Shown piece by piece: positions 4,009-39,049 of a stretch of DNA of 39,049 bases; position 1 is the first letter of the stretch, and every line of letters begins with the position of its first letter. A model generated the notes under the pieces. The model saw only the letters and a list, made by a program, of their open reading frames with translations. It was not told the origin of the DNA and ran no database searches. The position numbers and the translations under genes are program-made. The DNA comes from Candidatus Ruminimicrobiellum caprinum (GTDB taxonomy: Bacteria; Elusimicrobiota; Endomicrobiia; Endomicrobiales; Endomicrobiaceae), in the NCBI GenBank assembly GCA_017413305.1, contig JAFPUA010000158.1:1-39049 (forward strand), read 5' to 3'.

Positions 4009-6474
4009 ATGGAAGTTTTTTCTTTGGTAGGAAAAATAGCTGTAAATTATTCGGATGCTATATCTAAGATTGATAAAGTATCAAATGCCGCCGATGATGC
4101 CGCCGATTCATTAAATGATGTTTCTGATGCAGCAGAAGATTCACAGAACCCTATTAAGGGTTCTGGAAATGCCGCTTCTGATGCGGATAGCAAATTTTCA
4201 GCATGGCAACTTACTCTTGCTAATCTTGCTGCAAATGCTATTCAAGGCATTATAAACAAGGTGGTTGAACTTGGTAAAAAATTAGGTGAATTTGCCGCTG
4301 CAAGTGTTTCTAATTTTGCGGAATTTGAACAGTTAGCCGGTGGAACTGAATTAATGTTTGGTGAAGCGGCTGAATATGTGATGAAGCAATCTGAAAAAGC
4401 TTATAAAACTGTTCAAATGTCACAGAATGATTATCTGCAACAGGTCAACGGTTTTGCTGTTGGCTTGAAAACCGCTTTGGGCGGTAATGAACAGGCGGCA
4501 GCGGAATTAGCCCATAAAATCATTACAGCGGAAGCCGATATTGTAGCCGCAACCGGCAACAGTCAGGAAGCGGTTCAAAATGCCTTTAATGGCATAATGA
4601 AAAGTAATTATACCATGCTGGATAACTTGCAGCTTGGTATTACACCGACAAAAGAAGGTTTTCAGGAAGTCATTGATAAGGTTAATGAATGGAATGCCGC
4701 AAACGGTAGAGCAACCCATTATCAAATTGAAAACCTTGCCGATTGTCAAGCCGCCCTTGTGGATTATGTAGAAATGCAAGGGTTAGCCGGTTATGCTTCC
4801 AATGAAGCCGGTTCAACTATTCAAGGTAGTTGGTCAAGCGTTTTAGCTTTATTTGATAATATAAAAACCAAAGTTGGTAAGCAGCTTGCCCCGGTGGTTA
4901 TGAATTTCCTTCAACAGCTATCCGCATGGATGGATAATGTTGATTGGGATGAATTCGCCGCTAAACTTGGTGAATCTTTCGGTGCTTTAACTGAATGGAT
5001 AAGCCAAATTGATTTTACAACTTTCTTCCAGAAAGCAAAGCAAGGTGTAACATCTTTTGTTGAAAAACTTGGTGATCTAATAACAAAGGTCGTTTCCGTT
5101 ATCAATTCAATACATGGTTTTTCAGAGAAACTAAAAGAAATTTGGCCTATTATCCTTGGAGTGGTAACGGCAATAGCAAGTTTTTCAGCGGGTTTGAAAA
5201 TTGTTAGTATCATTAAAGGTGTTGCAACCGCCCTTTCCGGTTTATGGGGTGTTCTTATGGCTAACCCCATTATTGCTATTGTTGCGCTGATTGCTGGTTT
5301 GGTGGTTGCCGTTATACATCTTTGGAACACCAATGAAGATTTCCGAAATGCTGTAATTGCTATTTGGAATGCTATCAAAGGCGCTTTTCAGTCTGTAGCG
5401 GAAGCAATTAAGAATGCTTGGAATTCTGTTAAGGAAAAAACTATTTCTATTTGGAATTCCGTTAAGGAAACGGTTACTAATGCTTGGAACACAATTAAAA
5501 GTGTTGTTCAAGTTGGTGTAATGCTGATTAAGGAAATTCTTACCGCTGCATTTAATCTTATCACTTTACCTTTCCGGTTTATTTGGGAGAACTGCAAAGA
5601 TGTAATAATTACGGTATGGAACGCTATTAAATCTTTTATTTCCAATGCAATTCAAAATATCAAAGATACTGTTACTGAAAAGTTCAATGCTGTTAAAGAT
5701 ACTGTTTCAACTATTTTTAATGCGGTCAAAACCTTTATTATAAGCGTCTTTTCCGCTATTTGGTCGGTAGTAAGTGATAAGCTGGAAAATATCAAAACTG
5801 CTTTTTCCACAAAACTTCAAGCCGCATGGTCAACAGTTAGTTCAATCTTTAATAGCATTAAATCAACTGTAACAAGTATTATTACTTCCGTTTGGTCGGT
5901 AGTAAGTGATAAGCTGGAAAATATCAAAACTGCTTTTTCCAGCAAGCTTAATGCAGCGCTTTCAACTGTATCTTCTATTTTTGAATCTATCAAAAGTACG
6001 GTACAGAGTAAAATTGATGCTGCTAAAGAAGCTGTAAGAAGTGGAATTGAACAGATGAAATCATTCTTTAATTTCACTTGGAGTTTACCACATATTAAAC
6101 TTCCGCATTTTTCAATAAGTGGAAGCTTTAGCCTTAATCCACCTTCCACACCGCATTTTAGCGTTGAATGGTATAGGAAAGGTGCTATTCTTACTAACCC
6201 GGCTATATTTGGGTTTAATCCTTATACCGGAAAGGCTATGGGTGCGGGTGAAGCTGGTAATGAAGCAATAGCCCCTATTGATACTTTGCAGAAATATGTG
6301 AAAGAAGCTGTTGCGGAAGAAAATACCGCAATGCTTGAAATACTCAGTGCAATTCTAAGCATTGTTTCAAGTATTGATGAAAATATGGCTGATAGCTTGT
6401 ATCATGCTTTGCTTGGATTGCAGTTCAAAGTGAATGATAGAGAATTTGCAAGGTTAGTAAAGGCGGTTAGTTAA
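4009..6474 (+). CDS. Tail tape measure protein
   Basis: The largest ORF (821 aa), helical and repeat-rich (W-N-x-I-K type repeats), with hydrophobic central segments. It sits between the chaperone and distal tail genes. Confidence 0.85.
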   Translation: MEVFSLVGKIAVNYSDAISKIDKVSNAADDAADSLNDVSDAAEDSQNPIKGSGNAASDADSKFSAWQLTLANLAANAIQGIINKVVELGKKLGEFAAASVSNFAEFEQLAGGTELMFGEAAEYVMKQSEKAYKTVQMSQNDYLQQVNGFAVGLKTALGGNEQAAAELAHKIITAEADIVAATGNSQEAVQNAFNGIMKSNYTMLDNLQLGITPTKEGFQEVIDKVNEWNAANGRATHYQIENLADCQAALVDYVEMQGLAGYASNEAGSTIQGSWSSVLALFDNIKTKVGKQLAPVVMNFLQQLSAWMDNVDWDEFAAKLGESFGALTEWISQIDFTTFFQKAKQGVTSFVEKLGDLITKVVSVINSIHGFSEKLKEIWPIILGVVTAIASFSAGLKIVSIIKGVATALSGLWGVLMANPIIAIVALIAGLVVAVIHLWNTNEDFRNAVIAIWNAIKGAFQSVAEAIKNAWNSVKEKTISIWNSVKETVTNAWNTIKSVVQVGVMLIKEILTAAFNLITLPFRFIWENCKDVIITVWNAIKSFISNAIQNIKDTVTEKFNAVKDTVSTIFNAVKTFIISVFSAIWSVVSDKLENIKTAFSTKLQAAWSTVSSIFNSIKSTVTSIITSVWSVVSDKLENIKTAFSSKLNAALSTVSSIFESIKSTVQSKIDAAKEAVRSGIEQMKSFFNFTWSLPHIKLPHFSISGSFSLNPPSTPHFSVEWYRKGAILTNPAIFGFNPYTGKAMGAGEAGNEAIAPIDTLQKYVKEAVAEENTAMLEILSAILSIVSSIDENMADSLYHALLGLQFKVNDREFARLVKAVS

Positions 6475-6476
6475 TT

Positions 6477-7328
6477 ATGTTGGAAAGATTGAAATTCACA
6501 AATCACATAAATGAAACCCTTGATTTTGGTAAGGGTGGGTTATTCGTGAATTCCAACAGTCTACATGATTATCTATGGGAATATTCCGATGATAGCAACC
6601 GGATTAGAAGCTTTGTAAGAGGTATTCAAACAAAATCTATTCCGGTTGTTATTATTTGTGATTCAGAAGAACAAGGAATTCTTTTGAAGAATCAGTTAAT
6701 GGAATATGCGGATAAAGATGTTTTAGCAAAGCAGCATGGAAAGCTAATCATAAATGGTTATTATATGCGCTGTTACATCATTGGTAGTAAAAAAAGCAAT
6801 TACCTTTGGTATAAAGGTCACCTTGAAACAACTTTAACCGTTGCAACTGATTTTCCCCAATGGATTAAAGAAAGCACTGTTTCTTTTCGTGTAGATGGTC
6901 GAGTAATTGACGATGATACACCAAGCGTTGTAACCGATAAAAGAAATCTGGATTACAATTATGATTTTCCATTTGACTATACTTCCGGTATGGCTGGAAA
7001 AACCTTAGTTAATACGGGTTTCACAGGAACTAATTTCAAACTTATTATTTTTGGCCCAGCTATAAACCCCGCTGTTCATATTGCCGGTCATACTTACCAA
7101 GTTAATTGCACTATTCAAGAAGGGGAATATCTTACTATTGATAGTTTAACAAAGGTAATTACTTTGACAAAGGTAAATGGAACAACTGAAAATCATTTCA
7201 ATGATCGTAATAGAACAAGTTATATCTTTGAAAAGATTCCAGCGGGAAACAATGTTGTAACGTGGGATAACACCTTTGGATTTGATGTTATCTTACTGGA
7301 AGAACGGAGTGAACCCAAATGGATTTAA
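6477..7328 (+). CDS. Distal tail protein (Dit-like)
   Basis: 283-aa ORF directly after the tape measure. Assignment by gene order. Confidence 0.55.
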   Translation: MLERLKFTNHINETLDFGKGGLFVNSNSLHDYLWEYSDDSNRIRSFVRGIQTKSIPVVIICDSEEQGILLKNQLMEYADKDVLAKQHGKLIINGYYMRCYIIGSKKSNYLWYKGHLETTLTVATDFPQWIKESTVSFRVDGRVIDDDTPSVVTDKRNLDYNYDFPFDYTSGMAGKTLVNTGFTGTNFKLIIFGPAINPAVHIAGHTYQVNCTIQEGEYLTIDSLTKVITLTKVNGTTENHFNDRNRTSYIFEKIPAGNNVVTWDNTFGFDVILLEERSEPKWI

Positions 7329-8281
7329 TCTATGCAACCGGCGAAAAAGTTGATATTGGTGTGATGAATAGTTTTAAATTTGATCTTGCTTTTGGTATTG
7401 ATGAAAATAATTTTGAACTAACCACAAGTACCAATAACCATGTTTGCCGGGAAGGGTACATTCTATATATTGAAGATACGGAATATGGCGGTATCATTCG
7501 GAAAATAGCGGTTAATACCCAAATTGGGGAATTGCTGTATAAGGGTGATACATGGCATGGAATAATTGCTAAAAAAATTCTTGAACCGGATGCCGGGGAA
7601 GATTATTTGATTTGTGATGGTGAAGCTAATTCAGTTCTTTCAAGTTTGATTGAAAGAATGGGGTTAGATGATCTATTCAAAGCTTCAACTGATCTTTCTT
7701 TAATTACAATCAGAAATTATAAAATGAATCGGTACATTGATGGTTATTCCGGTATTAAAAAAATGCTTGCTGCTTTTGGCGGGAAATTGAAATTAATATT
7801 TCAAGATGGTTTTGTAATTCTTTCCGCTGAACCCCTTGCCGATTATTCACAGGATGATGAATTTGATAGTTCACAAATTGATTTTGATATTGAAAAGAAC
7901 TATAAACCAACAAATCATGTGATCTGTTTAGGCCGGGGGGAACTTGCAGAAAGAACAGTTATCCACCTGTTTACAGATTCAGAAGGTAATATTTCCCATA
8001 CGCAAAGCCTTTTCGGTTTGGATGAAATAACTTTGACCTATGAAAATGCTAATTGTGAATCCGATGAAGAACTTGAAAACGGTGGTATTGAACTGTTAAA
8101 AGCAGAATGGAACACTGATAAACTGCAAATCAATTTTGATAGTACAAAAACCTATGATATTGGGGATATTGTAGGTGCAAGAGAAAATGTAACCGGTATT
8201 TTCATGGCTAAAGAAATTGTAAAAAAGATTGTTTCCATTGACGATGAAACAGTTACTATTTCACACAAAGTAGGAGAATAA
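7319..8281 (+). CDS. Baseplate/tail tip protein (Gp37-like or Tal-position protein)
   Basis: 320-aa ORF overlapping the Dit stop by 10 nt. It lies between Dit and the tail fibre. Confidence 0.4.
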   Translation: MDLIYATGEKVDIGVMNSFKFDLAFGIDENNFELTTSTNNHVCREGYILYIEDTEYGGIIRKIAVNTQIGELLYKGDTWHGIIAKKILEPDAGEDYLICDGEANSVLSSLIERMGLDDLFKASTDLSLITIRNYKMNRYIDGYSGIKKMLAAFGGKLKLIFQDGFVILSAEPLADYSQDDEFDSSQIDFDIEKNYKPTNHVICLGRGELAERTVIHLFTDSEGNISHTQSLFGLDEITLTYENANCESDEELENGGIELLKAEWNTDKLQINFDSTKTYDIGDIVGARENVTGIFMAKEIVKKIVSIDDETVTISHKVGE

Positions 8282-8284
8282 AAT

Positions 8285-10225
8285 ATGTCTAATCTTCATT
8301 TAGTTACCGGGTATGCCGGTGTTGAACACGTTACTTCCAATGACCACGGTTCACTTAATGCCGCTATCATGGGGAATGGTGAATTTGTTCTTGAACGGGG
8401 TAACCAATTTGCTGCAAGCATTCAATCTAATAATAAGGTTAGGGTTCTTGATGGTGATATGCTTATGCAAGGTAGGCATATTAGACTTAAAGAAAACACC
8501 TATGTTGATCTAAACTTTGATAACGGAACACAAGGTTACAAGCGCCTTGATTTAATTGTTGTACGTTATTCAAAGAGTTCAACCACAGATGTTGAAGAAG
8601 CAAATCTTGTAGTTATCAAAGGTACACCTTCTGAAACATCTTATAATGTACCTGATAAAATTACCGGGGATATTCTTAACGAAAGCGCACTTGAAAATGA
8701 TACCGTTCTTTACAGGGTGAAATTTGATGGGCTGAATATTCAGCCGCTTGAAAAGGTGTTTGAAACAATTACCACCTTGGAAACCCTTGAAGAAGATATT
8801 CAAGATACTATTGATGAAATGGTTGAAGATGCGGAAGAAAGGGTTTCAGAAGCAATAGGGCAGCTTTGCACCTTAACCATTACCACGGATGAAAGATTGA
8901 TTGGTTTATCTATAACCTGTACTAATGGGGAAGATACCTTTACCAAAACAGTTCCAGATACTAAAAAAGTTGTTTTCAATCTTCCTTCCCTTGGAACATG
9001 GACGGTTAATAACCCGGTTAAGCAGCAAACCAAAAGTGTTGTCATGCAGTATTACGGGGAATATAACCTTGAACTTTCTGGATATACAAAGCTTTCTGCA
9101 ATCATTGATTTCAGTAAGTCAAACCCTGATTCCATGGTTACTTATGCGGATGAACTTGAAGGATTTACCAAGAAAAGTGACGCAATTCTTAGCACCCCCA
9201 TTTTTGCAGCTTTGAAGAATTGTGTTCTTAACAATGGTGAAGTTGTAAAGTATTTGAACAAATCCAATTTCAGCAAGTATGAAGATGATACTTCTTCTGA
9301 CATTACCACTCTTGGTAATGATGTTATGCTTGAAATTGGGAAGCGTCTTGGTTATCTGATTGAATGGATTGATTCTAATAAGCTGAAAGTTTCCGTAACA
9401 GACAAACCCAATGATGCGGCTTATAAGTATGATGCTTTTTCACTGGATAGCTATAACGATTGCGATAAAATTTATATCGGTGTTTATAAAGGCTATGCAA
9501 GCGGAAATAAGGTTTATAGTTCCAGCGGTAAAGCGCCGACAGTTTCACAGACTATAACAACCTTCCGTTCTTGGTGTAGGGCAAGGGGTGACGGTTACCA
9601 ACAGCGCACATGGGGCAGCGTTAAACTCATGCAATGCCTGTATATTCTTTATACCGGAAACCTTAATTCACAGTCTGCTATTGGTTATGGCTATGTTAAT
9701 TCAAGTCATAATGCTGGCGTTAATACAGGTGGAACAAATGCTTATGGGTTCAATTCAGAAGTAATCAAAGGAACTAATCCTTCTTATATGACAGACCAAA
9801 ATCATCAAGTCAAGTGCCTTGGTATTGAAGATTTTTGGGGTAATTATTGGGAATTTGTTGATGGGCTTCATTCCGGGGCTAACAGGCAGATTCTTACTTG
9901 TGATATTGCCGCTAATTTCAATACAAGCGGTTCGGGATATGAAGATAATGGTAATGGCGGGGTTTCCGCTGATCTTGGAAATTATATGAGTATGGTTCAA
10001 GGCGGTTCAAATGCTGGATTTACCCCTAAAACTGTTAGCGGTTCTGAAACTACTTATCTATGCGATTATGCTTATTTGAGGGTGTCTTGTCTTGCTATTT
10101 TCGGTGGTGCGTGGAATAATACGGGTGGAGCCGGTGCTTTTCGGCTTGATCTTAGTTACGCTGATTCTTTATCCGGTGCCGGTGTCGCTTGTCGCCTGAT
10201 GTTTATGCACAAAGAAACAGCTTAA
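8285..10225 (+). CDS. Tail fibre / receptor-binding protein, DGR target (VR at its C-terminus)
   Basis: 646-aa ORF at the end of the tail block. The last ~47 codons (...YLRVSCLAIFGGAWNNTGGAGAFRLDLSYADSLSGAGVACRLMF...) match the downstream TR, with differences at TR adenines. Confidence 0.8.
   Translation: MSNLHLVTGYAGVEHVTSNDHGSLNAAIMGNGEFVLERGNQFAASIQSNNKVRVLDGDMLMQGRHIRLKENTYVDLNFDNGTQGYKRLDLIVVRYSKSSTTDVEEANLVVIKGTPSETSYNVPDKITGDILNESALENDTVLYRVKFDGLNIQPLEKVFETITTLETLEEDIQDTIDEMVEDAEERVSEAIGQLCTLTITTDERLIGLSITCTNGEDTFTKTVPDTKKVVFNLPSLGTWTVNNPVKQQTKSVVMQYYGEYNLELSGYTKLSAIIDFSKSNPDSMVTYADELEGFTKKSDAILSTPIFAALKNCVLNNGEVVKYLNKSNFSKYEDDTSSDITTLGNDVMLEIGKRLGYLIEWIDSNKLKVSVTDKPNDAAYKYDAFSLDSYNDCDKIYIGVYKGYASGNKVYSSSGKAPTVSQTITTFRSWCRARGDGYQQRTWGSVKLMQCLYILYTGNLNSQSAIGYGYVNSSHNAGVNTGGTNAYGFNSEVIKGTNPSYMTDQNHQVKCLGIEDFWGNYWEFVDGLHSGANRQILTCDIAANFNTSGSGYEDNGNGGVSADLGNYMSMVQGGSNAGFTPKTVSGSETTYLCDYAYLRVSCLAIFGGAWNNTGGAGAFRLDLSYADSLSGAGVACRLMFMHKETA
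10063..10204 (+). repeat. DGR variable region (VR)
   Basis: Gap-free 142-bp alignment to 10328..10469 (offset 265). By hand count there are 26 mismatches, and 25 of them fall at positions that are A in the TR. Confidence 0.9.
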
Positions 10226-10327
10226 TTACGTTCACGTTTTTTGTATATAGGTAGTACCGAAGTGACAAACAGCGTAAAAGGTTAGACCACATCACTTGAA
10301 TAATTGACAAAAACCACTTTTAAGAAA

Positions 10328-10469
10328 CGATTATGCTAATTTGAAGGTGTCTTGTCTTACTATTTTCAGTGGTAAATGGAATAATACGGGTAAAACCGGT
10401 ACTTTTCAACTTAATCTTAATAACACTGATTCTTTATCCAATACCAATGTCACTTGTCACCTATTGTTT
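10328..10469 (+). repeat. DGR template region (TR), non-coding template RNA
   Basis: Adenine-rich copy of the VR, containing AAT/AAC-type codons if translated. It lies 143 bp upstream of the RT gene. Confidence 0.9.
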
Positions 10470-10612
10470 TCCCAAAATAGGTATCTTCTTAGCAAGGTGA
10501 CGGTACTACCTTACCCCTTGGTAAAACAGGGAACTTAGAAATTCCCCATTATTCAGAACCGTATTAGTAACCGGTTCGCAGGTGAAAATTCGGGAAGGAA
10601 AACATCAAATAA

Positions 10613-11743
10613 ATGAAAAGGCATGGTAATATCTATGACAAAATCTGTTCTATAGAAAATTTGCGAGAAGCACACCGCAACGCAAGAAAGGATAAGTTGT
10701 TTTATAAAGAAGTTCAAATGGTTGATAGCAACCCTGATTACTACCTTACACAGATTCAAGAAATGCTATCAAGTGAAACCTATGAAGTTTCTGAATATAC
10801 TTATTCGGTCATTAATGACAAAGGCAAAAGCCGTGATCTTGCAAAATTACCATATTTCCCGGATAGAATTATTCAATGGGCTATTATGCTTCAAATTGAA
10901 CCCGTTTTCATGGAAACCTTTTGTTATCATACTTGTGCAAGCATTAAGCAAAGGGGAATAAGCCGGGTTGTTGATTTGATGCACGAATACTTAAAAGATA
11001 CGAAAAACACAACTTATTGTTTTAAGATGGATGTATCAAAATTTTATCCCAGTATTGACCATGATATTTTGAAGAAGCTGCTTAGAAAGAAATTCAAAGA
11101 TAAAAGGCTTCTTAAATTACTGGATAAGATTATTGATAGCGCAATTACAGAAACCGGTGTTCCAATAGGTTCTTATCTTTCACAATATCTTGCTAATTTC
11201 TACCTTTCATATTTTGACCATTGGATGAAAGAAGAATTACATCTTAAATATGTAGTTCGTTACATGGATGATATTGTTGTTTTATCAAGTTCAAAGCTGC
11301 ATTTACATATTGTTCAAGCGCAAGTTAAACAGTATTTGAACACGGAACTAAATCTAACAATTAAACCGAATTATCAAATATTCCCCGTTGAAAAACGGGG
11401 AATTGATTTTGTCGGATTCCGTTTCTATCATGGGAAAACCTTATTGAGAAAGTCAACCTATAAGAAGATGAAACGAAAGATGCGGAAGATATTGAAGAAG
11501 CAGATGAAGAATCAGCTAATCAATTATTCTGAATTCTGTTCAATCAATTCTTATGCCGGTTGGCTTAAATTATGTGATGGTTACCGCCTTTCACAGAAAT
11601 ACATTATTCCGGTAATACCTTCTTTATTGCGCTATTACAAAGAAATCATTCTTGGAAATAGCAAGAAATCCCCTATAAAGAAGGAAAATGCTTTTATCAA
11701 ATATAAAGAAAACTTGATTAAGAAAGGATTGCTTCAAGAATGA
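10613..11743 (+). CDS. DGR reverse transcriptase
   Basis: 376 aa with the YMDD catalytic box (VRYMDDIVVL) and the DGR-type motif 4, IGSYLSQ (VPIGSYLSQYLANFYL). Adjacent to the TR. Confidence 0.9.
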   Translation: MKRHGNIYDKICSIENLREAHRNARKDKLFYKEVQMVDSNPDYYLTQIQEMLSSETYEVSEYTYSVINDKGKSRDLAKLPYFPDRIIQWAIMLQIEPVFMETFCYHTCASIKQRGISRVVDLMHEYLKDTKNTTYCFKMDVSKFYPSIDHDILKKLLRKKFKDKRLLKLLDKIIDSAITETGVPIGSYLSQYLANFYLSYFDHWMKEELHLKYVVRYMDDIVVLSSSKLHLHIVQAQVKQYLNTELNLTIKPNYQIFPVEKRGIDFVGFRFYHGKTLLRKSTYKKMKRKMRKILKKQMKNQLINYSEFCSINSYAGWLKLCDGYRLSQKYIIPVIPSLLRYYKEIILGNSKKSPIKKENAFIKYKENLIKKGLLQE

Positions 11744-12027
11744 AAGATTTAGGTGTTGTTCATGGAAGCGGATTACAGGCTAAACCGGTAATCTATTCAG
11801 ATGATACGGTTTATGTTCACACTGATATTAAGCAGCTTGAAGAATATGGTGGTGAACCTGTTCAAGACTTCTTTGAATATCATGAATATCAATATGATGT
11901 TCAAGAATGGTTTGAATTAATCGGGGATGAAAACAGTTCCTTGAAAGCTGATCTTCTGGACACACAGGAACAGCTTACAGATACACAGCTTGCCCTTGTA
12001 GAAGTATATGAATTGATTGGGGGTTAA
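11740..12027 (+). CDS. Hypothetical acidic protein, translationally coupled to the RT
   Basis: 95-aa ORF whose ATG overlaps the RT stop (ATGA). Very acidic, with 4 Lys and no Arg. Confidence 0.4.
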   Translation: MKDLGVVHGSGLQAKPVIYSDDTVYVHTDIKQLEEYGGEPVQDFFEYHEYQYDVQEWFELIGDENSSLKADLLDTQEQLTDTQLALVEVYELIGG

Positions 12028-12031
12028 TGTC

Positions 12032-12142
12032 ATGGCTAAAGTGTATGCTGATCTAATTAGAAAGGGCTTAAAAACTCTTGACGATGTTCCCGAAAAGTTG
12101 CGGGAAGAAGTCAGAAAAATTCTTGAAGGTGATAACCGGTGA
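12032..12142 (+). CDS. XkdX-like small phage protein
   Basis: 36-aa ORF absent from the track (too short): MAKVYADLIRKGLKTLDDVPEKLREEVRKILEGDNR. This pattern is typical of XkdX-family proteins found after tail fibre genes in Firmicutes phages. Confidence 0.5.
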   Translation: MAKVYADLIRKGLKTLDDVPEKLREEVRKILEGDNR

Positions 12143-12186
12143 TAAACTGGATTATCATAATTCTGTTTGGAAAGAAGGTGTATGAA

Positions 12187-12327
12187 ATGGCTGTTGTCTA
12201 TGCAACCCTTATCATCAAGGGCAAGAAAACTATCAATGATGTTCCTATCAGAATTCGTGAACAGGTCAAACAGGTTCTAATTGATTTGGATTTGCCCGAA
12301 TTAGCAGAAGAAACCGAAGGGGTATAA
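12187..12327 (+). CDS. XkdX-like small phage protein (second paralog)
   Basis: An internal ATG with RBS gaaggtg gives MAVVYATLIIKGKKTINDVPIRIREQVKQVLIDL..., which parallels the 12032 ORF. Confidence 0.5.
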   Translation: MAVVYATLIIKGKKTINDVPIRIREQVKQVLIDLDLPELAEETEGV

Positions 12328-13851: not shown

Positions 13852-14889
13852 TTAATTAGTGATTAGTTCAATATTCTTTCTCAGTTCATCAATGTTTTTA
13901 TGGGTATAAACTCTTTCGCCGGTTTCCTTAGATTTATGACCCATTAACCTATCAATACAAACCTTATTTGCCCCGGCTGAATCAAGCCTTGATCTAAAGG
14001 TATGCCGGGTTTCATGGGGTGTATGTTCCATTTCAAGTTGCTGCATTAAGGTGTTCCAGATTTCCCGGTATTGACTAACGCTTAGTTTCTTTCCTTGGTA
14101 TTCAAACAGGTAACCGCTTTTAGATTGGTTTATCCGTTGTTCAACTATAGGTTGAATTTTTGAATGAATCGGAACAATCCGGTTCTTTCCCGCCGCTGTT
14201 TTAGTTCCCCCGGTAATAGTCTTTTCCTTTTGGTCAATATTTGAAATCTTAATTTCAAGAACTTCCGAAATTCTAAAACCGGTGTAAAGGAAGAAAGCTA
14301 ATGAATCTGCATAAGGTAATTGCTGGTTATCCCAAACCCGTTTTACTTCTTCATCTGTGAAAATCGTTTTAGTAGTTTCCGGGATGCTTTCAGAAGTCAG
14401 AAGGTCAGAACAGCATTTTTGAATAATGTCTAATTCAGAAGCAAACCGGTCAAGATGCCCCCAAAGGTTTTTAATTGCCCCTTGTGTGCTGTACCCATGT
14501 CCACAATTATCAATGCAATCTTGCATATGATAAGATTTGATTTGGTTATAGCGGTATTTTTCATATTTTTGACAATGCTTATAAGCTGATTTTAAAGAAC
14601 AAAGGTTTGATCTACCAAGTTTAATAGCACGTTTTTCAAGCCAAAGTTCATAAAGTTCTTTTAAGGTGATCTTTGCAGCGTCTATATCCCATGGGGATTT
14701 GTTGTATTCCGCAAGCATGATTAACCCGGCTTCTTTGGTTTCCGTATAGCCGATATTGATTAGAATGGGATAACCTTTTTCATTCTTCCCATTGCTTTTC
14801 CTTACCGCCCATGGTTTACGGCGATTTCCAGACAGCTTAACAACTGTACCATATCCATTAGGATTTTTCATGATTTCATTCCCTTTCAT
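13852..14889 (-). CDS. int: Tyrosine integrase
   Basis: Contains TGFRISEVLE (box I Arg), HETRHTFRS (HxxR), LMGHKS and VYTH (catalytic Tyr). The probable true start is the ATG at 14871 (MKNPNGYG), which has the RBS aaaggga. Confidence 0.9.
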   Translation of the reverse strand: MKGNEIMKNPNGYGTVVKLSGNRRKPWAVRKSNGKNEKGYPILINIGYTETKEAGLIMLAEYNKSPWDIDAAKITLKELYELWLEKRAIKLGRSNLCSLKSAYKHCQKYEKYRYNQIKSYHMQDCIDNCGHGYSTQGAIKNLWGHLDRFASELDIIQKCCSDLLTSESIPETTKTIFTDEEVKRVWDNQQLPYADSLAFFLYTGFRISEVLEIKISNIDQKEKTITGGTKTAAGKNRIVPIHSKIQPIVEQRINQSKSGYLFEYQGKKLSVSQYREIWNTLMQQLEMEHTPHETRHTFRSRLDSAGANKVCIDRLMGHKSKETGERVYTHKNIDELRKNIELITN

Positions 14890-15221: not shown

Positions 15222-15653
15222 TTAAACGGAATTTCCCCGCTTATAAATTAAATATCTTTGATTTCTTTCATCCATATAGGGGGTATAAGGTTCAATATCA
15301 TCAAAGAATTTTTGAAACTTTCGCTTCTTTCCTTGTTCCGTTTTCATTTGATTAGCTTCTTCCCAAATTTTGTTATATGCCCGGATTATAAAATCATAAA
15401 TCATTTCTTGCTTATCTTTTTCAAAAGCCGTTTGCATTTCTTCCGGGTTCACAGTTAAAGGAACTTCTTTGGAAAGAACATCTAAAGTATTAATTGCTTT
15501 ATGGAACACTTTTATTCTGGAAAAGAAAACATCCGGGTTAGTTGTATTTTGAAGAATTTCAGAAGATTCTTGCAAAATTCTAATAGCGTTTTCCGCTTCT
15601 TTGGCGGTTAAGGGATTAATTGATTTCTTTTTATTAAACAATCCCATAATCAT
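15222..15653 (-). CDS. Hypothetical protein co-oriented with and coupled to the repressor gene
   Basis: 143-aa ORF. Its start overlaps the repressor stop (ATGA). No recognisable motif. Confidence 0.45.
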   Translation of the reverse strand: MIMGLFNKKKSINPLTAKEAENAIRILQESSEILQNTTNPDVFFSRIKVFHKAINTLDVLSKEVPLTVNPEEMQTAFEKDKQEMIYDFIIRAYNKIWEEANQMKTEQGKKRKFQKFFDDIEPYTPYMDERNQRYLIYKRGNSV

Positions 15654-16033
15654 TCCCTTTCATACTTACCGGAAGATAACAATGATTGAATTATACCGGT
15701 GACCGCTGATCTATCTTTTTCATCAAGCTTCATAAATAAAGAAGCAGCTTCAAGAGTTTCCCGCCCAAAGCATTCTTGAAACTTTTCAAGGGTTTCAACT
15801 TCTTTTTGAATTTTTAATTCTTCTTCCGTGGGTTCATCAAAACACATTAGTTCACATGGGGAAACCCCAAAGATTTCAGATAGGCGCTTTATAGTTGACC
15901 GCTTAATATTTTCAACCGTGCCTAATTCCCATTTGTTTACAGCAGCACGATTGACCCCGCAAAGTTTCCCTAATTCATCTTGTGAATACCCGTGTTGAAT
16001 TCTAAGCTGCTTGATGTATTCGCCCATTGTCAT
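15650..16033 (-). CDS. XRE-family HTH repressor (CI-like)
   Basis: The HTH is ...QHGYSQDELGKLCGVNRAAVNKWELG.... The start was chosen at the ATG at 16033 (MTMGEYIK) because the RBS aaaggggg lies upstream. The track ORF extends to 16075. Confidence 0.75.
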   Translation of the reverse strand: MTMGEYIKQLRIQHGYSQDELGKLCGVNRAAVNKWELGTVENIKRSTIKRLSEIFGVSPCELMCFDEPTEEELKIQKEVETLEKFQECFGRETLEAASLFMKLDEKDRSAVTGIIQSLLSSGKYERE

Positions 16034-16134
16034 AGGGCAAAACCCCCTTTCATGGTTGTATCTTGATTTTAACATATATTTTATTGAAGTTCAATTATTT
16101 TTGAAATTGTATCTTAAAAATATTAATTTACCTA

Positions 16135-18688: not shown

Positions 18689-19630
18689 ATGGTCAAAGGT
18701 TATAAGGCTTTTGATAAAGATTGGGTTTGCCGCCCCTGTTCCGGTGTAAAGAAACAGTATTCTTGCCCCGGAATGTTTGAAACCACAACTAAACCTTCTG
18801 TTTGCAATCATGGAATGCACTTCTGCAAGGAACTGAAAGATGTGTTTGATTACTATTCCAATTCCCCGGAAGAAGTAAGGATTGCCGAAGTGATCGCACA
18901 TGGGGAAGTTGCAGAGCATGGGAACAAGTGCAGCACCAACAAACTTGAAGTTGTGCGGGAAATCCCATGGGAAGAAGTTTACCGCCTTGTGAATGAAGGA
19001 AAAGGCTGTTCTGGTATCTGCAACACCGGCGACTGCAACACCGGCAACCGGAACACCGGCGACTGCAACACCGGCAACCGGAACACCGGCGACTGGAACA
19101 CCGGCGACTGGAACACCGGCAACCGGAACACCGGCGACTGCAACACCGGCAACCGGAACACCGGCAACTGGAACACCGGCGACTGCAACACCGGCAACCG
19201 GAACACCGGCAACCGGAACACCGGCAACCGGAACACCGGCGACTGCAACACCGGCAACCGGAACACCGGCGACTGGAACAAAACAAGCTTTTCTTCCGGG
19301 TGTTTCTGTACAGAAGAACCGAAAATCATGATGTTCAATAAACCTTCTGATTGGACTATGAGAATGTGGTTTGAATCAGATGCCCGTTACATTCTGAATC
19401 AGATTCCTAAGAATGTTGTGGAATGGGTTTGGGAACAGGATATGACCGATGAAGAAAAGGCCGCTAATCCTTCCTATAAGACAACAGGCGGTTATTGCAG
19501 AATCCCGAATGAAAGCGAAAATGCACAACGCTTTTGGGATGGATTACCCGATAATCAGCGGGAAATCATTTATCAGCTTCCCAATTTTGATAAAGAAATC
19601 TTTGAAGCTTGCACCGGTATCAAAATTTAA
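18689..19630 (+). CDS. Pentapeptide-repeat protein (17 x NTG[DN][CRW]) with a Cys-rich N-terminal domain
   Basis: 313-aa ORF. The central region is NTGDC/NTGNR/NTGDW repeated 17 times, and an RBS (gaaaggaagg) lies upstream. Confidence 0.7.
   Translation: MVKGYKAFDKDWVCRPCSGVKKQYSCPGMFETTTKPSVCNHGMHFCKELKDVFDYYSNSPEEVRIAEVIAHGEVAEHGNKCSTNKLEVVREIPWEEVYRLVNEGKGCSGICNTGDCNTGNRNTGDCNTGNRNTGDWNTGDWNTGNRNTGDCNTGNRNTGNWNTGDCNTGNRNTGNRNTGNRNTGDCNTGNRNTGDWNKTSFSSGCFCTEEPKIMMFNKPSDWTMRMWFESDARYILNQIPKNVVEWVWEQDMTDEEKAANPSYKTTGGYCRIPNESENAQRFWDGLPDNQREIIYQLPNFDKEIFEACTGIKI
19022..19276 (+). repeat. 17 tandem 15-bp repeats (aacaccggcRacYgS) inside a CDS
   Basis: Exact 15-bp periodicity from 19022 to 19276. 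The units differ at only 3 positions. Confidence 0.9.
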
Positions 19631-38360: not shown

Positions 38361-39049
38361 ATGGCTAACTCTTATACTCACCTTTCCGATGTAATCAACC
38401 CCGAAGTAATGGGCAATCTGATTGAAGCTAAGATTGCCGCCCTTTGTAAGCTGCTTCCTTATGCCAAGGTAGATACAAGCCTTGTCGGTGTTCCCGGTGA
38501 TACCAAGACTGTTCCCGCATGGAACTATATTGGTGATGCCGAAGATTTTGACGTTGAAGCCCATTCCGATGCCGGTACGGAAATGGAAACCACCCGCCTT
38601 ACCGCTGGTAAGACCACTTTCACTATCAAATGTGCGGGTAAGTCTGTTTCCATTCTTCAGACCGCTATCAATTCTGGCCTTGGTGACCCGGTTGGTCAGG
38701 CCAATGTTCAGCTTGCCAAATCCATTGTTGGTAAGACCGACAATGATCTTATGGCGGCTATTATTGCCGGTGCGGATGGTGCAACCATTCAGGTTGTCGG
38801 CGCTGGCGCTTCCGTTATCAGCTACAACGGTATTGTCGATGCCGTGACCAAGTTCCTTGATGAAGAAGATGGTGTTGACAAGGTTCTGTTCATCCACCCG
38901 GAACAGGAAGCAACCCTTCTGAAAGACAGCAACTTTATCAGCGCTGATAAGTTTGAAGCCGGTGTTGCTGTTAACGGTTCTATCGGTAAGATTGCCGGTG
39001 CTTGGATTAAGAAATCCAAGAAGGTTGAAAAGCGGGATGCCGTTACCGC
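38361..39049 (+). CDS. Major capsid protein, N-terminal part (runs off the window end and continues at 142..688)
   Basis: ATG at 38361 after the RBS gaaaggat. The frame has no stop to the end of the window. The track misses it because it is open-ended. Confidence 0.8.
   Translation, partial: MANSYTHLSDVINPEVMGNLIEAKIAALCKLLPYAKVDTSLVGVPGDTKTVPAWNYIGDAEDFDVEAHSDAGTEMETTRLTAGKTTFTIKCAGKSVSILQTAINSGLGDPVGQANVQLAKSIVGKTDNDLMAAIIAGADGATIQVVGAGASVISYNGIVDAVTKFLDEEDGVDKVLFIHPEQEATLLKDSNFISADKFEAGVAVNGSIGKIAGAWIKKSKKVEKRDAVT
38909..39049. repeat. Terminal overlap, identical to 1..141
   Basis: See the feature at 1..141. Confidence 0.95.

Follow-up and report, generated by a model that had tools for sequence, protein, structure and literature searches.

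Diversity-generating retroelements (DGRs) acting on phage tail fibres are already well documented, those without accessory genes included, and the locus described here is a new example of the kind that will not surprise a specialist. It lies in a stretch of 39,049 nucleotides, contig JAFPUA010000158.1 of assembly GCA_017413305.1, which is referred to below as the window and carries a phage genome. The element is made up of a tail-fibre gene with a variable region (VR) near its 3' end, a non-coding template region (TR) and a gene for a reverse transcriptase (RT), in that order. We consider it, with a probability of about 95%, to be a functional and recently active DGR without accessory genes, of the layout target/VR, TR, RT, in a temperate phage of gut Clostridia.

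Two described systems provide the frame for this reading. The DGR of Bordetella phage BPP-1 (mtd-avd-TR-brt) is likewise phage-borne, and shares with the window element the C-terminal, C-type-lectin-fold tip of a tail-fibre protein as its target, the adenine-specific transfer from TR to VR, the order VR, TR, RT, a TR-RT spacer of ~140 nt with a structured RNA, and 3' ends of VR and TR that are fixed and non-identical. The window element departs from it in having no avd between VR and TR or elsewhere and no G+C-rich inverted repeat after the VR; in a spacer RNA of the RT-17 type where BPP-1 has RT-10 (PMC5737381); in a 646-aa target with a different N-terminal part; and in a phage whose terminase relatives suggest a Gram-positive gut anaerobe, rather than Bordetella, as host. 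By gene layout it is likened to Architecture A1 / Lineage 3 (Wu et al. 2018, PMC5758913), in which a TR-RT core follows an upstream target and avd, HRDC, MSL and CH1 are all lacking; it also has a putative initiation of mutagenic homing (IMH) element with its TR counterpart (IMH*) and, like most DGRs of that survey, lacks an inverted repeat. DGRs of this layout are often met with in Firmicutes and phages, and Architecture A without accessory genes accounts for 75 of 372 DGRs, Lineage 3 being without avd (PMC5758913). The accessory-less layout of the window is that of the published Architecture A, and the absence of Avd is not a defining matter for a DGR; accessory genes such as Avd (accessory variability determinant), HRDC, MSL or CH1 occur in most DGRs, though not in all.

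The evidence that carries our reading begins with the repeat pair. VR (10063..10204, plus strand) encodes residues ~594-640 of the target, and TR (10328..10469, plus strand) is non-coding. Their computed ungapped comparison, at an offset of 265, comprises 142 columns with 26 mismatches, 25 of which fall at TR adenines; with 41 A among the 142 TR bases, chance would place 25 or more of the 26 mismatches on A with a probability of 5.3e-16 (hypergeometric/Fisher). An earlier note on this DNA, made from its letters alone, had reached the same counts for a gapless 142-bp match by hand and had made its proposal depend on enrichment at TR adenines; the computed alignment returns both the counts and the enrichment. 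Homology between VR and TR breaks off sharply at either end, and the pair is recovered independently by a repeat finder (family D4, 82% identity). Substitutions at TR adenines in the window VR span 10073-10198 and comprise 22 A>G, two A>T and one A>C, and the sole mismatch at another base, TR T to VR A at 10199, adjoins the 3' end. VR ends 21 nt short of the stop codon of the 646-aa open reading frame (ORF), and 102 nt separate VR from TR.

When both strands of the window were searched over their full length with the TR, its adenines counted as N, no other VR came up. At 1361-1385 there is a short stretch resembling the VR, 25 nt in length, which was put down to chance and rejected as a second VR. 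The same pattern (A as N, 134 nt) found nothing in an exact scan of IMG/VR, and related loci were collected from that database by protein-based retrieval. The TR contains 38 adenines 5' of its IMH*-like end, spread over 24 codons of which eight are AAY, and only three TR codons are able to mutate to stop. The theoretical repertoire from these 38 adenines is 4^38 = 7.6e22 DNA variants, or 5.6e20 protein variants.

The second line of evidence is the RT itself, a protein of 376 aa encoded at 10613..11743 on the plus strand. It matches Pfam RVT_1 (E 5e-22) and PHROG 1423 (E 1e-122), and its ORF, carrying RYMDDIVVL and PIGSYLSQ, is intact with all catalytic and DGR-signature residues (R74, D140, IGSYLSQ at 185-191 and YMDD at 217-220). 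When compared with solved structures (phmmer, PDB), its best match is 8ub7_A (328 aa, E 9.8e-35, 123.7 bits), which we take from its sequence to be the RT of BPP-1 (bRT); group II intron RTs come next, with 62-65 bits, among them GsI-IIC (E 7e-17, 64.9 bits). The window RT and bRT are 34% identical across the 294 residues that align, and R74 and I181 of bRT are kept as R74 and I185, together with the catalytic D140 and YMDD. In bRT, R74 and I181 promote adenine mutagenesis, and in DGR enzymes the signature [I/V/L]GxxxSQ replaces QGxxxSP (PMC7826257). Judged by sequence comparison, the enzyme is of the DGR type: the motif, the YMDD, the nearest match to bRT and a margin of 59 bits over the best group II RT all point the same way.

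Some database results would lend themselves to a different account, in which the RT belongs to a group II intron, a retron or an Abi/DRT system and the repeat next to it arose independently, by partial duplication of the 3' end of the tail-fibre gene. The best NCBIfam model is that of a group II intron RT/maturase (127 bits), PADLOC lists DRT-type RT models, and homologues are labelled 'retron-type RT' or 'LtrA' in some databases. The NCBIfam scores are far below the curated cut-offs (group II TIGR04416 127/300, retron St85 62/235, Drt3a 74/200, Drt2 60/390), and the PADLOC matches are to the generic RT domain only. The ranking of bRT at 123.7 against group II at 64.9 bits in the one phmmer comparison, the motif IGxxxSQ in place of QGxxxSP, the lack of any group II intron or retron RNA family in an Rfam search over 9800-12100, and neighbours that are tail and lysis genes all speak against such an origin. 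Moreover, a plain duplication cannot yield 25/26 mismatches at A, nor the same layout in 36/36 related loci. We give this account almost no credence, and the RT, whose clustering with group II intron, retron or Abi enzymes would have refuted the proposal of the earlier note, does not group with them and lies nearest to bRT.

At its C-terminus the RT is ~50 aa longer than bRT (residues ~330-376) and ends in a lysine-rich tail (…KKSPIKKENAFIKYKENLIKKGLLQE). Remoter members of the RT clade align to residues 1-330 only, and the tail is therefore specific to this lineage.

The target of the element is encoded at 8285..10225 on the plus strand. The 646-aa protein has no match in Pfam, and PHROG 5302, 'tail protein', matches residues 273-643 (E 2e-50). 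An AlphaFold2 model built from a 58-sequence alignment has a mean pLDDT of 90.3, with values of at least 95 over most of the C-terminal half; a single-sequence prediction of the C-terminal half gave a pLDDT of 29. In the PDB, DGR variable proteins alone match the model with E <1e-3, namely TaqVP (5VF4) at E 2e-9 and Mtd at E 3e-4 to 6e-4 (3e-4 to 1.5e-3 over structures 1yu0-1yu4); 5VF4 is identified as TaqVP in bioRxiv 10.1101/432187. It is the C-terminal part of the model that is shared with TaqVP (5VF4) and Mtd (1YU0-1YU4); sequence identity is 10-18%, and whole-model TM-scores are 0.2-0.3 since only that part is in common. A sequence profile of the target finds TaqVP weakly through three collinear motifs, including GiEDfWGNvWEwV and GGxW. 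In the BFVD viral structure library its neighbours are tail fibre, tail collar fibre and receptor-binding proteins (RBPs), including tail fibres of crAss-like phages that also carry the closest annotated RTs, and the N-terminal 270 residues resemble phage RBP/baseplate modules. On the evidence of the predicted fold, the target is a tail fibre/receptor-binding protein of the C-type-lectin kind, with the VR at the C-terminal end of the lectin-like domain. DGRs at large have their VR inside a protein-coding target gene, mostly at its 3' end, and the target has a fold that tolerates variation (C-type lectin or Ig). The earlier note had called a DGR from adenine asymmetry beside an RT, with a 646-aa tail fibre as target and a downstream RT carrying YMDD and IGSYLSQ; its ORF assignments (8285-10225 and 10613-11743) are correct, and the mismatch pattern, the type of RT and the fold of the target all agree with that call, as do the PHROG 5302 match and the nearness of the model to TaqVP and Mtd with the naming of the target.

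Natural alleles provide the evidence for activity. The exact RT sequence is present on eight contigs of other assemblies, and VR alleles were compared at four representative places (L081, L082, L083 and L084). L081 has the same VR as the window, and a second allele is found in the other three. This allele differs from that of the window at 18 positions, all within VR 10094-10181 and 18/18 at TR adenines. Outside the VR, differences from the window number zero over 15,666 bp in L082, zero over 13,140 bp in L083 and two in L084, and the TR is identical in the window and all four. At the protein level, 12 residues within 604-633 distinguish the two alleles. Because all 18 differences are at TR A and flank substitutions are zero, a retrohoming event would be newer than any point mutation in the flanks. 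The proposal that the phage can diversify its receptor-binding tip gains directly from this, in that near-identical genomes differ at TR-adenine positions of the VR while the TR is constant.

The same pattern extends to relatives. In a 96% identical strain (L166), three of the 142 TR positions are changed and a third VR has 27/29 mismatches at TR A, and an 84% identical relative (L085) has an adenine-specific VR/TR pair of its own. Among the 40 IMG/VR loci with RTs 45-71% identical to that of the window (L001-L040), 36/36 testable loci have the VR-TR-RT layout with adenine-only mismatches; the other four, with <450 nt upstream of the RT, were left out of this count.

It might be argued from the alleles that the DGR has decayed, the VR/TR asymmetry being a fossil and the alleles the product of recombination among phage strains that diversified long ago. 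The finding of two VR alleles among eight contigs, one of them common to three assemblies, would suit this, as would the lack of Avd and of a hairpin after the VR. An intact RT ORF, a TR identical between alleles, allele differences that are 18/18 at TR A against none in the remaining ~15.5 kb, and a spacer RNA structure and IMH-like end under selection (both discussed below) are hard to reconcile with decay, which we regard as very unlikely.

The 5'-most substitutions, at 10073 (A>T) and 10080 (A>G), are common to both alleles, and the 18 differing sites lie further 3'. This fits either a last retrohoming event whose 5' limit lay somewhere from 10080 to 10094 or selection acting on the codons concerned.

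The spectrum of substitutions is skewed towards G. A>G makes up 22/25 substitutions in the window and 14/23 in the second allele, and across L001-L040 the substitutions at TR adenines are 381 G, 173 T and 83 C. In vitro, bRT misincorporates dATP most often (PMC7826257), a preference that would give A>T, unlike the G excess seen here. The excess could stem from selection on fixed VRs or from a different misincorporation preference.

The 3' ends of the two repeats behave differently from the rest. The VR end at 10184..10204 (GTCGCTTGTCGCCTGATGTTT, plus strand) and the TR end at 10449..10469 (GTCACTTGTCACCTATTGTTT, plus strand) are set apart by four mismatches (10187, 10194, 10198 and the non-A mismatch at 10199) that are fixed in all alleles and kept in the 84% identical relative. 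These fixed differences yield a VR end GTCGCTTGTCGCCTGATG against a TR end GTCACTTGTCACCTATTG, the VR version being higher in G+C. Fixed, non-identical VR and TR ends are the pattern reported for IMH and IMH*, which mark where mutagenesis stops on the 3' side, and by analogy with the IMH of BPP-1 (PMC5758913) 10184-10204 may be read as an IMH-like element, 10449-10469 as its IMH*-like counterpart and ~10063-10182 as the mutagenised part. The 142-bp VR of the earlier note therefore stands as an adenine-mutagenised repeat, except that its last ~21 bp behave as a fixed end of the IMH/IMH* kind. No G+C-rich inverted repeat or hairpin was found 3' of the VR, where the DNA of 10182-10330 folds less stably than shuffled sequences do (z = +1.84), and no terminator-like site was found after the VR. 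A G+C-rich inverted repeat downstream of the IMH is found in only 34% of DGRs (PMC5758913).

Between TR and RT lies a spacer of 143 nt (10470-10612). Motifs RT-1 to RT-19 are RNA motifs near RT genes; RT-10 sits between the TR and brt of BPP-1, other members of the series were speculated to act in DGRs, and the original description of RT-17 assigns it no function (Weinberg et al. 2017, PMC5737381). The window spacer contains a structured RNA at 10504..10595 (plus strand) that resembles Rfam RT-17 (RF03020) in lying directly upstream of the RT gene on the same strand and in having a 5' hairpin followed by AAAAC. The P1 hairpin (10512-10523) is followed by a lineage-specific inserted hairpin (10529-10546) and by the P2 helix (10559-10564 with 10588-10593, with a central U.U), all on the plus strand. 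P2 encloses UAGUAA, which corresponds to a conserved GGUAR-type junction, then the variable P3 hairpin (10571-10582, plus strand), then UGAAA (GAA).

Covariation backs this structure. In an alignment of 17 sequences (A4), 95.4% of cells are paired and 8/9 pairs have changed on both sides; 0/500 shuffles match this, and slid controls reach 25-46%. A covariance model built from that alignment (R1) has one match in the 39-kb window, at 56 bits, and also matches 31 loci outside its training set, always directly upstream of the RT. A further alignment (A6) gives 94.9% of cells paired and 8/9 pairs with double changes, figures that lean towards structure, the alignment having been fitted to the model. 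Conservation of the spacer RNA structure and of the IMH-like end implies that both are maintained by selection.

With Rfam itself, the window spacer scores 22.8 bits for RT-17 (gathering score 40.4; E 0.021 on 201 nt) and 18.9 for RT-18, and the RT-17 gathering score is reached at the homologous position in ten relatives (40.4-52.7 bits). Sequence and structure comparison thus makes the window RNA a diverged relative of RT-17, as distinct from a threshold-passing member. Its low score is probably due to the two features by which it departs from the family, an additional hairpin (10529-10546) and a lengthened P3. The RNA survey accompanying the structure of the bRT-Avd-RNA complex dealt with Avd-containing DGRs only (bioRxiv 10.1101/2023.10.23.563531), which is why the published survey of RNA elements missed this clade.

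How the parts would work together can be sketched with BPP-1 as a guide. The course of events that we infer, from the transcription unit and cis-priming by the spacer RNA through the initiation site, the role of the IMH-like end and independence of Avd to an effect on host range, would be as follows. The TR and downstream spacer would be transcribed, probably by read-through from the late tail operon; with every part on the plus strand and no terminator between target and RT, this is the simplest source of TR RNA. The RT would bind the spacer RNA through its RT-17-like P1/P2/P3 structure and begin complementary DNA (cDNA) synthesis near the TR 3' end, at ~10448. In BPP-1, the TR 3' end pairs with the spacer as a template:primer duplex and cDNA starts just 5' of it (bioRxiv 10.1101/2023.10.23.563531). 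In the window, TR 10454-10462 could form a 9-bp helix with spacer 10495-10503 (p = 0.03; combined p 0.32 for 31 loci of the clade), and an unconstrained energy test of TR:spacer duplexes across the clade gave a mean z of +0.16. Priming from the 9-bp helix would put the start of the cDNA a few nucleotides beyond the last variable adenine, on its 3' side, fitting the fixed 3' end. The RT would then copy the TR faithfully but insert any nucleotide opposite adenines, and the mutagenised cDNA would replace the VR in the tail-fibre gene, the direction of transfer being set by the IMH-like VR end versus the IMH*-like TR end. The outcome would be variation at up to 24 codons on the ligand-binding face of the C-type-lectin-fold tip, altering receptor specificity.

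The lack of an Avd gene raises the question of what, if anything, stands in for it. The comparison with BPP-1 drawn in the earlier note holds for the DGR signature and fails for this component. It is conceivable that the DGR is active in dependence on an unrecognised accessory factor replacing Avd, either a host protein or the product of a 95-aa ORF at 11740..12027 (plus strand). The BPP-1 element cannot do without Avd, which sets the position of the template:primer duplex (bioRxiv 10.1101/2023.10.23.563531). The 95-aa ORF, for its part, starts in overlap with the stop codon of the RT gene (ATGA), and its synteny with the RT holds in the closest relatives. Its product is strongly acidic, unlike the basic Avd, and has no match in Pfam, NCBIfam, PADLOC or the phage record collection; PHROG 18126, to which it belongs, has no assigned function. 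Its place after the RT is confined to the nearest relatives (L001-L007, L085 and L166); it is missing from most of the RT clade, which nevertheless keeps adenine-specific VR/TR pairs, and Architecture A has no conserved accessory gene (Wu et al., PMC5758913). On balance, dependence on such a factor seems rather unlikely. The 95-aa ORF was rejected as an Avd substitute, its product being acidic, confined to the closest relatives and devoid of a family match in Pfam, NCBIfam and PADLOC; its membership of the DGR is uncertain, and it is more likely a gene of the tail/lysis module. A tentative suggestion, to which we would give somewhat less than even odds, is that the RT and the RT-17-type spacer RNA alone perform mutagenic retrohoming, with P1/P2/P3 and possibly the lysine-rich RT tail taking over the positioning that the Avd pentamer provides in BPP-1.

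Several smaller ORFs were seen around the element and its relatives. Downstream of the RT (11740-12327), the 95-aa ORF is followed by ORFs of 36 and 46 aa called in sister assemblies (in L081, 11420-11530 and 11575-11715) with the holin gene coming next; synteny with the RT extends to the 95-aa and 36-aa ORFs in L004-L007, L085 and L166. Four members of the clade have an ORF of 123-173 aa in a VR-TR gap of ~500 nt (L028 3250-3621, L033 4264-4785, L035 749-1153 and L037 1009-1425), and these ORFs share the motif KTFEDAC...W.P.W...YKYYPWF...GSRLC. They occupy the place of avd in BPP-1 yet are unlike Avd, and may be an unrecognised accessory or a neighbouring gene.

A number of points weigh against a functional and recently active DGR of the kind proposed. 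Each allele is known as the consensus of an assembly, and the eight contigs of the same phage show just two. The spacer of the window scores below the Rfam threshold for RT-17, a duplex between the TR 3' end and the spacer is without statistical support across the clade, and the hairpin after the VR is missing. A search for a promoter of the TR RNA gave no convincing candidate, promoter-like sites being no more numerous than shuffled sequences lead one to expect. No Avd or HRDC Pfam domain was found in any predicted protein of the genome, and a host-encoded or unrecognised phage factor could act in the role of Avd. To our knowledge, no Avd-less DGR mechanism has been reconstituted.

The genome around the element is that of a temperate siphovirus-like phage. 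Positions 1-141 and 38909-39049 of the window are identical (141 bp), and on this ground the window holds a complete genome, circular or terminally redundant, of 38,908 bp. Its genes include those for the small and large terminase subunits, a MuF-like protein and a scaffold protein. The target gene follows genes for the tape measure (4009-6474), a Dit-like protein (6477-7328) and a minor tail protein (7319-8281), each recognised by its PHROG match (TMP, Dit and minor tail, respectively). A holin and a CHAP/PG-binding endolysin are encoded 3' of the RT gene, and a replication module is also present. An integrase (13852-14889) and a Cro/CI-type repressor (15650-16075), both on the minus strand and so opposite to the element, are the grounds for a temperate lifestyle. 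A nucleotide-level search of the phage record collection gave no relative of this phage. Its closest terminase relatives (identity <=72%) are in prophages of gut Clostridia, chiefly Lachnospiraceae, which suggests, on sequence similarity, that this is the host group.

Three further features of these genomes may be recorded. The tape measure gene contains three 33-nt tandem repeats (5400-5498) and a 132-nt tandem duplication of 72% identity (5713-5976); internal repeats of this sort are typical of tape measure proteins. A gene at 18689-19630, for a DUF7666 and pentapeptide-repeat protein, has ~17-25 tandem 15-nt units at 18968-19340 (NTGDC/NTGNR). L081 differs from the window in this array by a 15-nt indel and the alignment of L084 breaks across it, which points to a varying number of repeats or to collapse of the array during assembly. 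In L085 (8071-10359), the relative of 84% identity, the lysis genes are followed directly by a response regulator and a histidine-kinase fragment where the integrase would stand, an arrangement suggesting a prophage end or a different integration module.

Among annotated phage genomes, the closest RTs are those of Psychrobacillus phage Perkons (54% aa identity) and of DGR-carrying crAss-like gut phages (cr55_1, cr6_1, cr7_1 and LMMB; 44-46%). These phages belong to other lineages and have genomes of 94-137 kb, as against 39 kb for the phage of the window.

What the window adds to the known repertoire of DGRs is of modest value: a clean natural example of recent Avd-less DGR activity, with two alleles differing at 18 TR-adenine sites. 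Natural-allele evidence of activity and a covariation-backed spacer RNA for its clade both go beyond the survey that defined Architecture A1. The covariation evidence supports the orphan Rfam family RT-17 being the spacer RNA of a clade of Avd-less DGRs, a group that lies outside the published survey of such RNAs. The compact cassette of ~1.7 kb (10063-11743) is a candidate minimal diversification system. If the RT and its RNA are sufficient, it would be a naturally minimal DGR active in the wild, of appeal as a compact tool for targeted hypermutation and as a test of the generality of the ribonucleoprotein mechanism worked out for BPP-1. For this uncultured gut phage itself, the element would mean the ability to re-target its receptor-binding tip, with ~5.6e20 protein variants within reach, and this bears on host range and on the dynamics between phages and their hosts in the gut.

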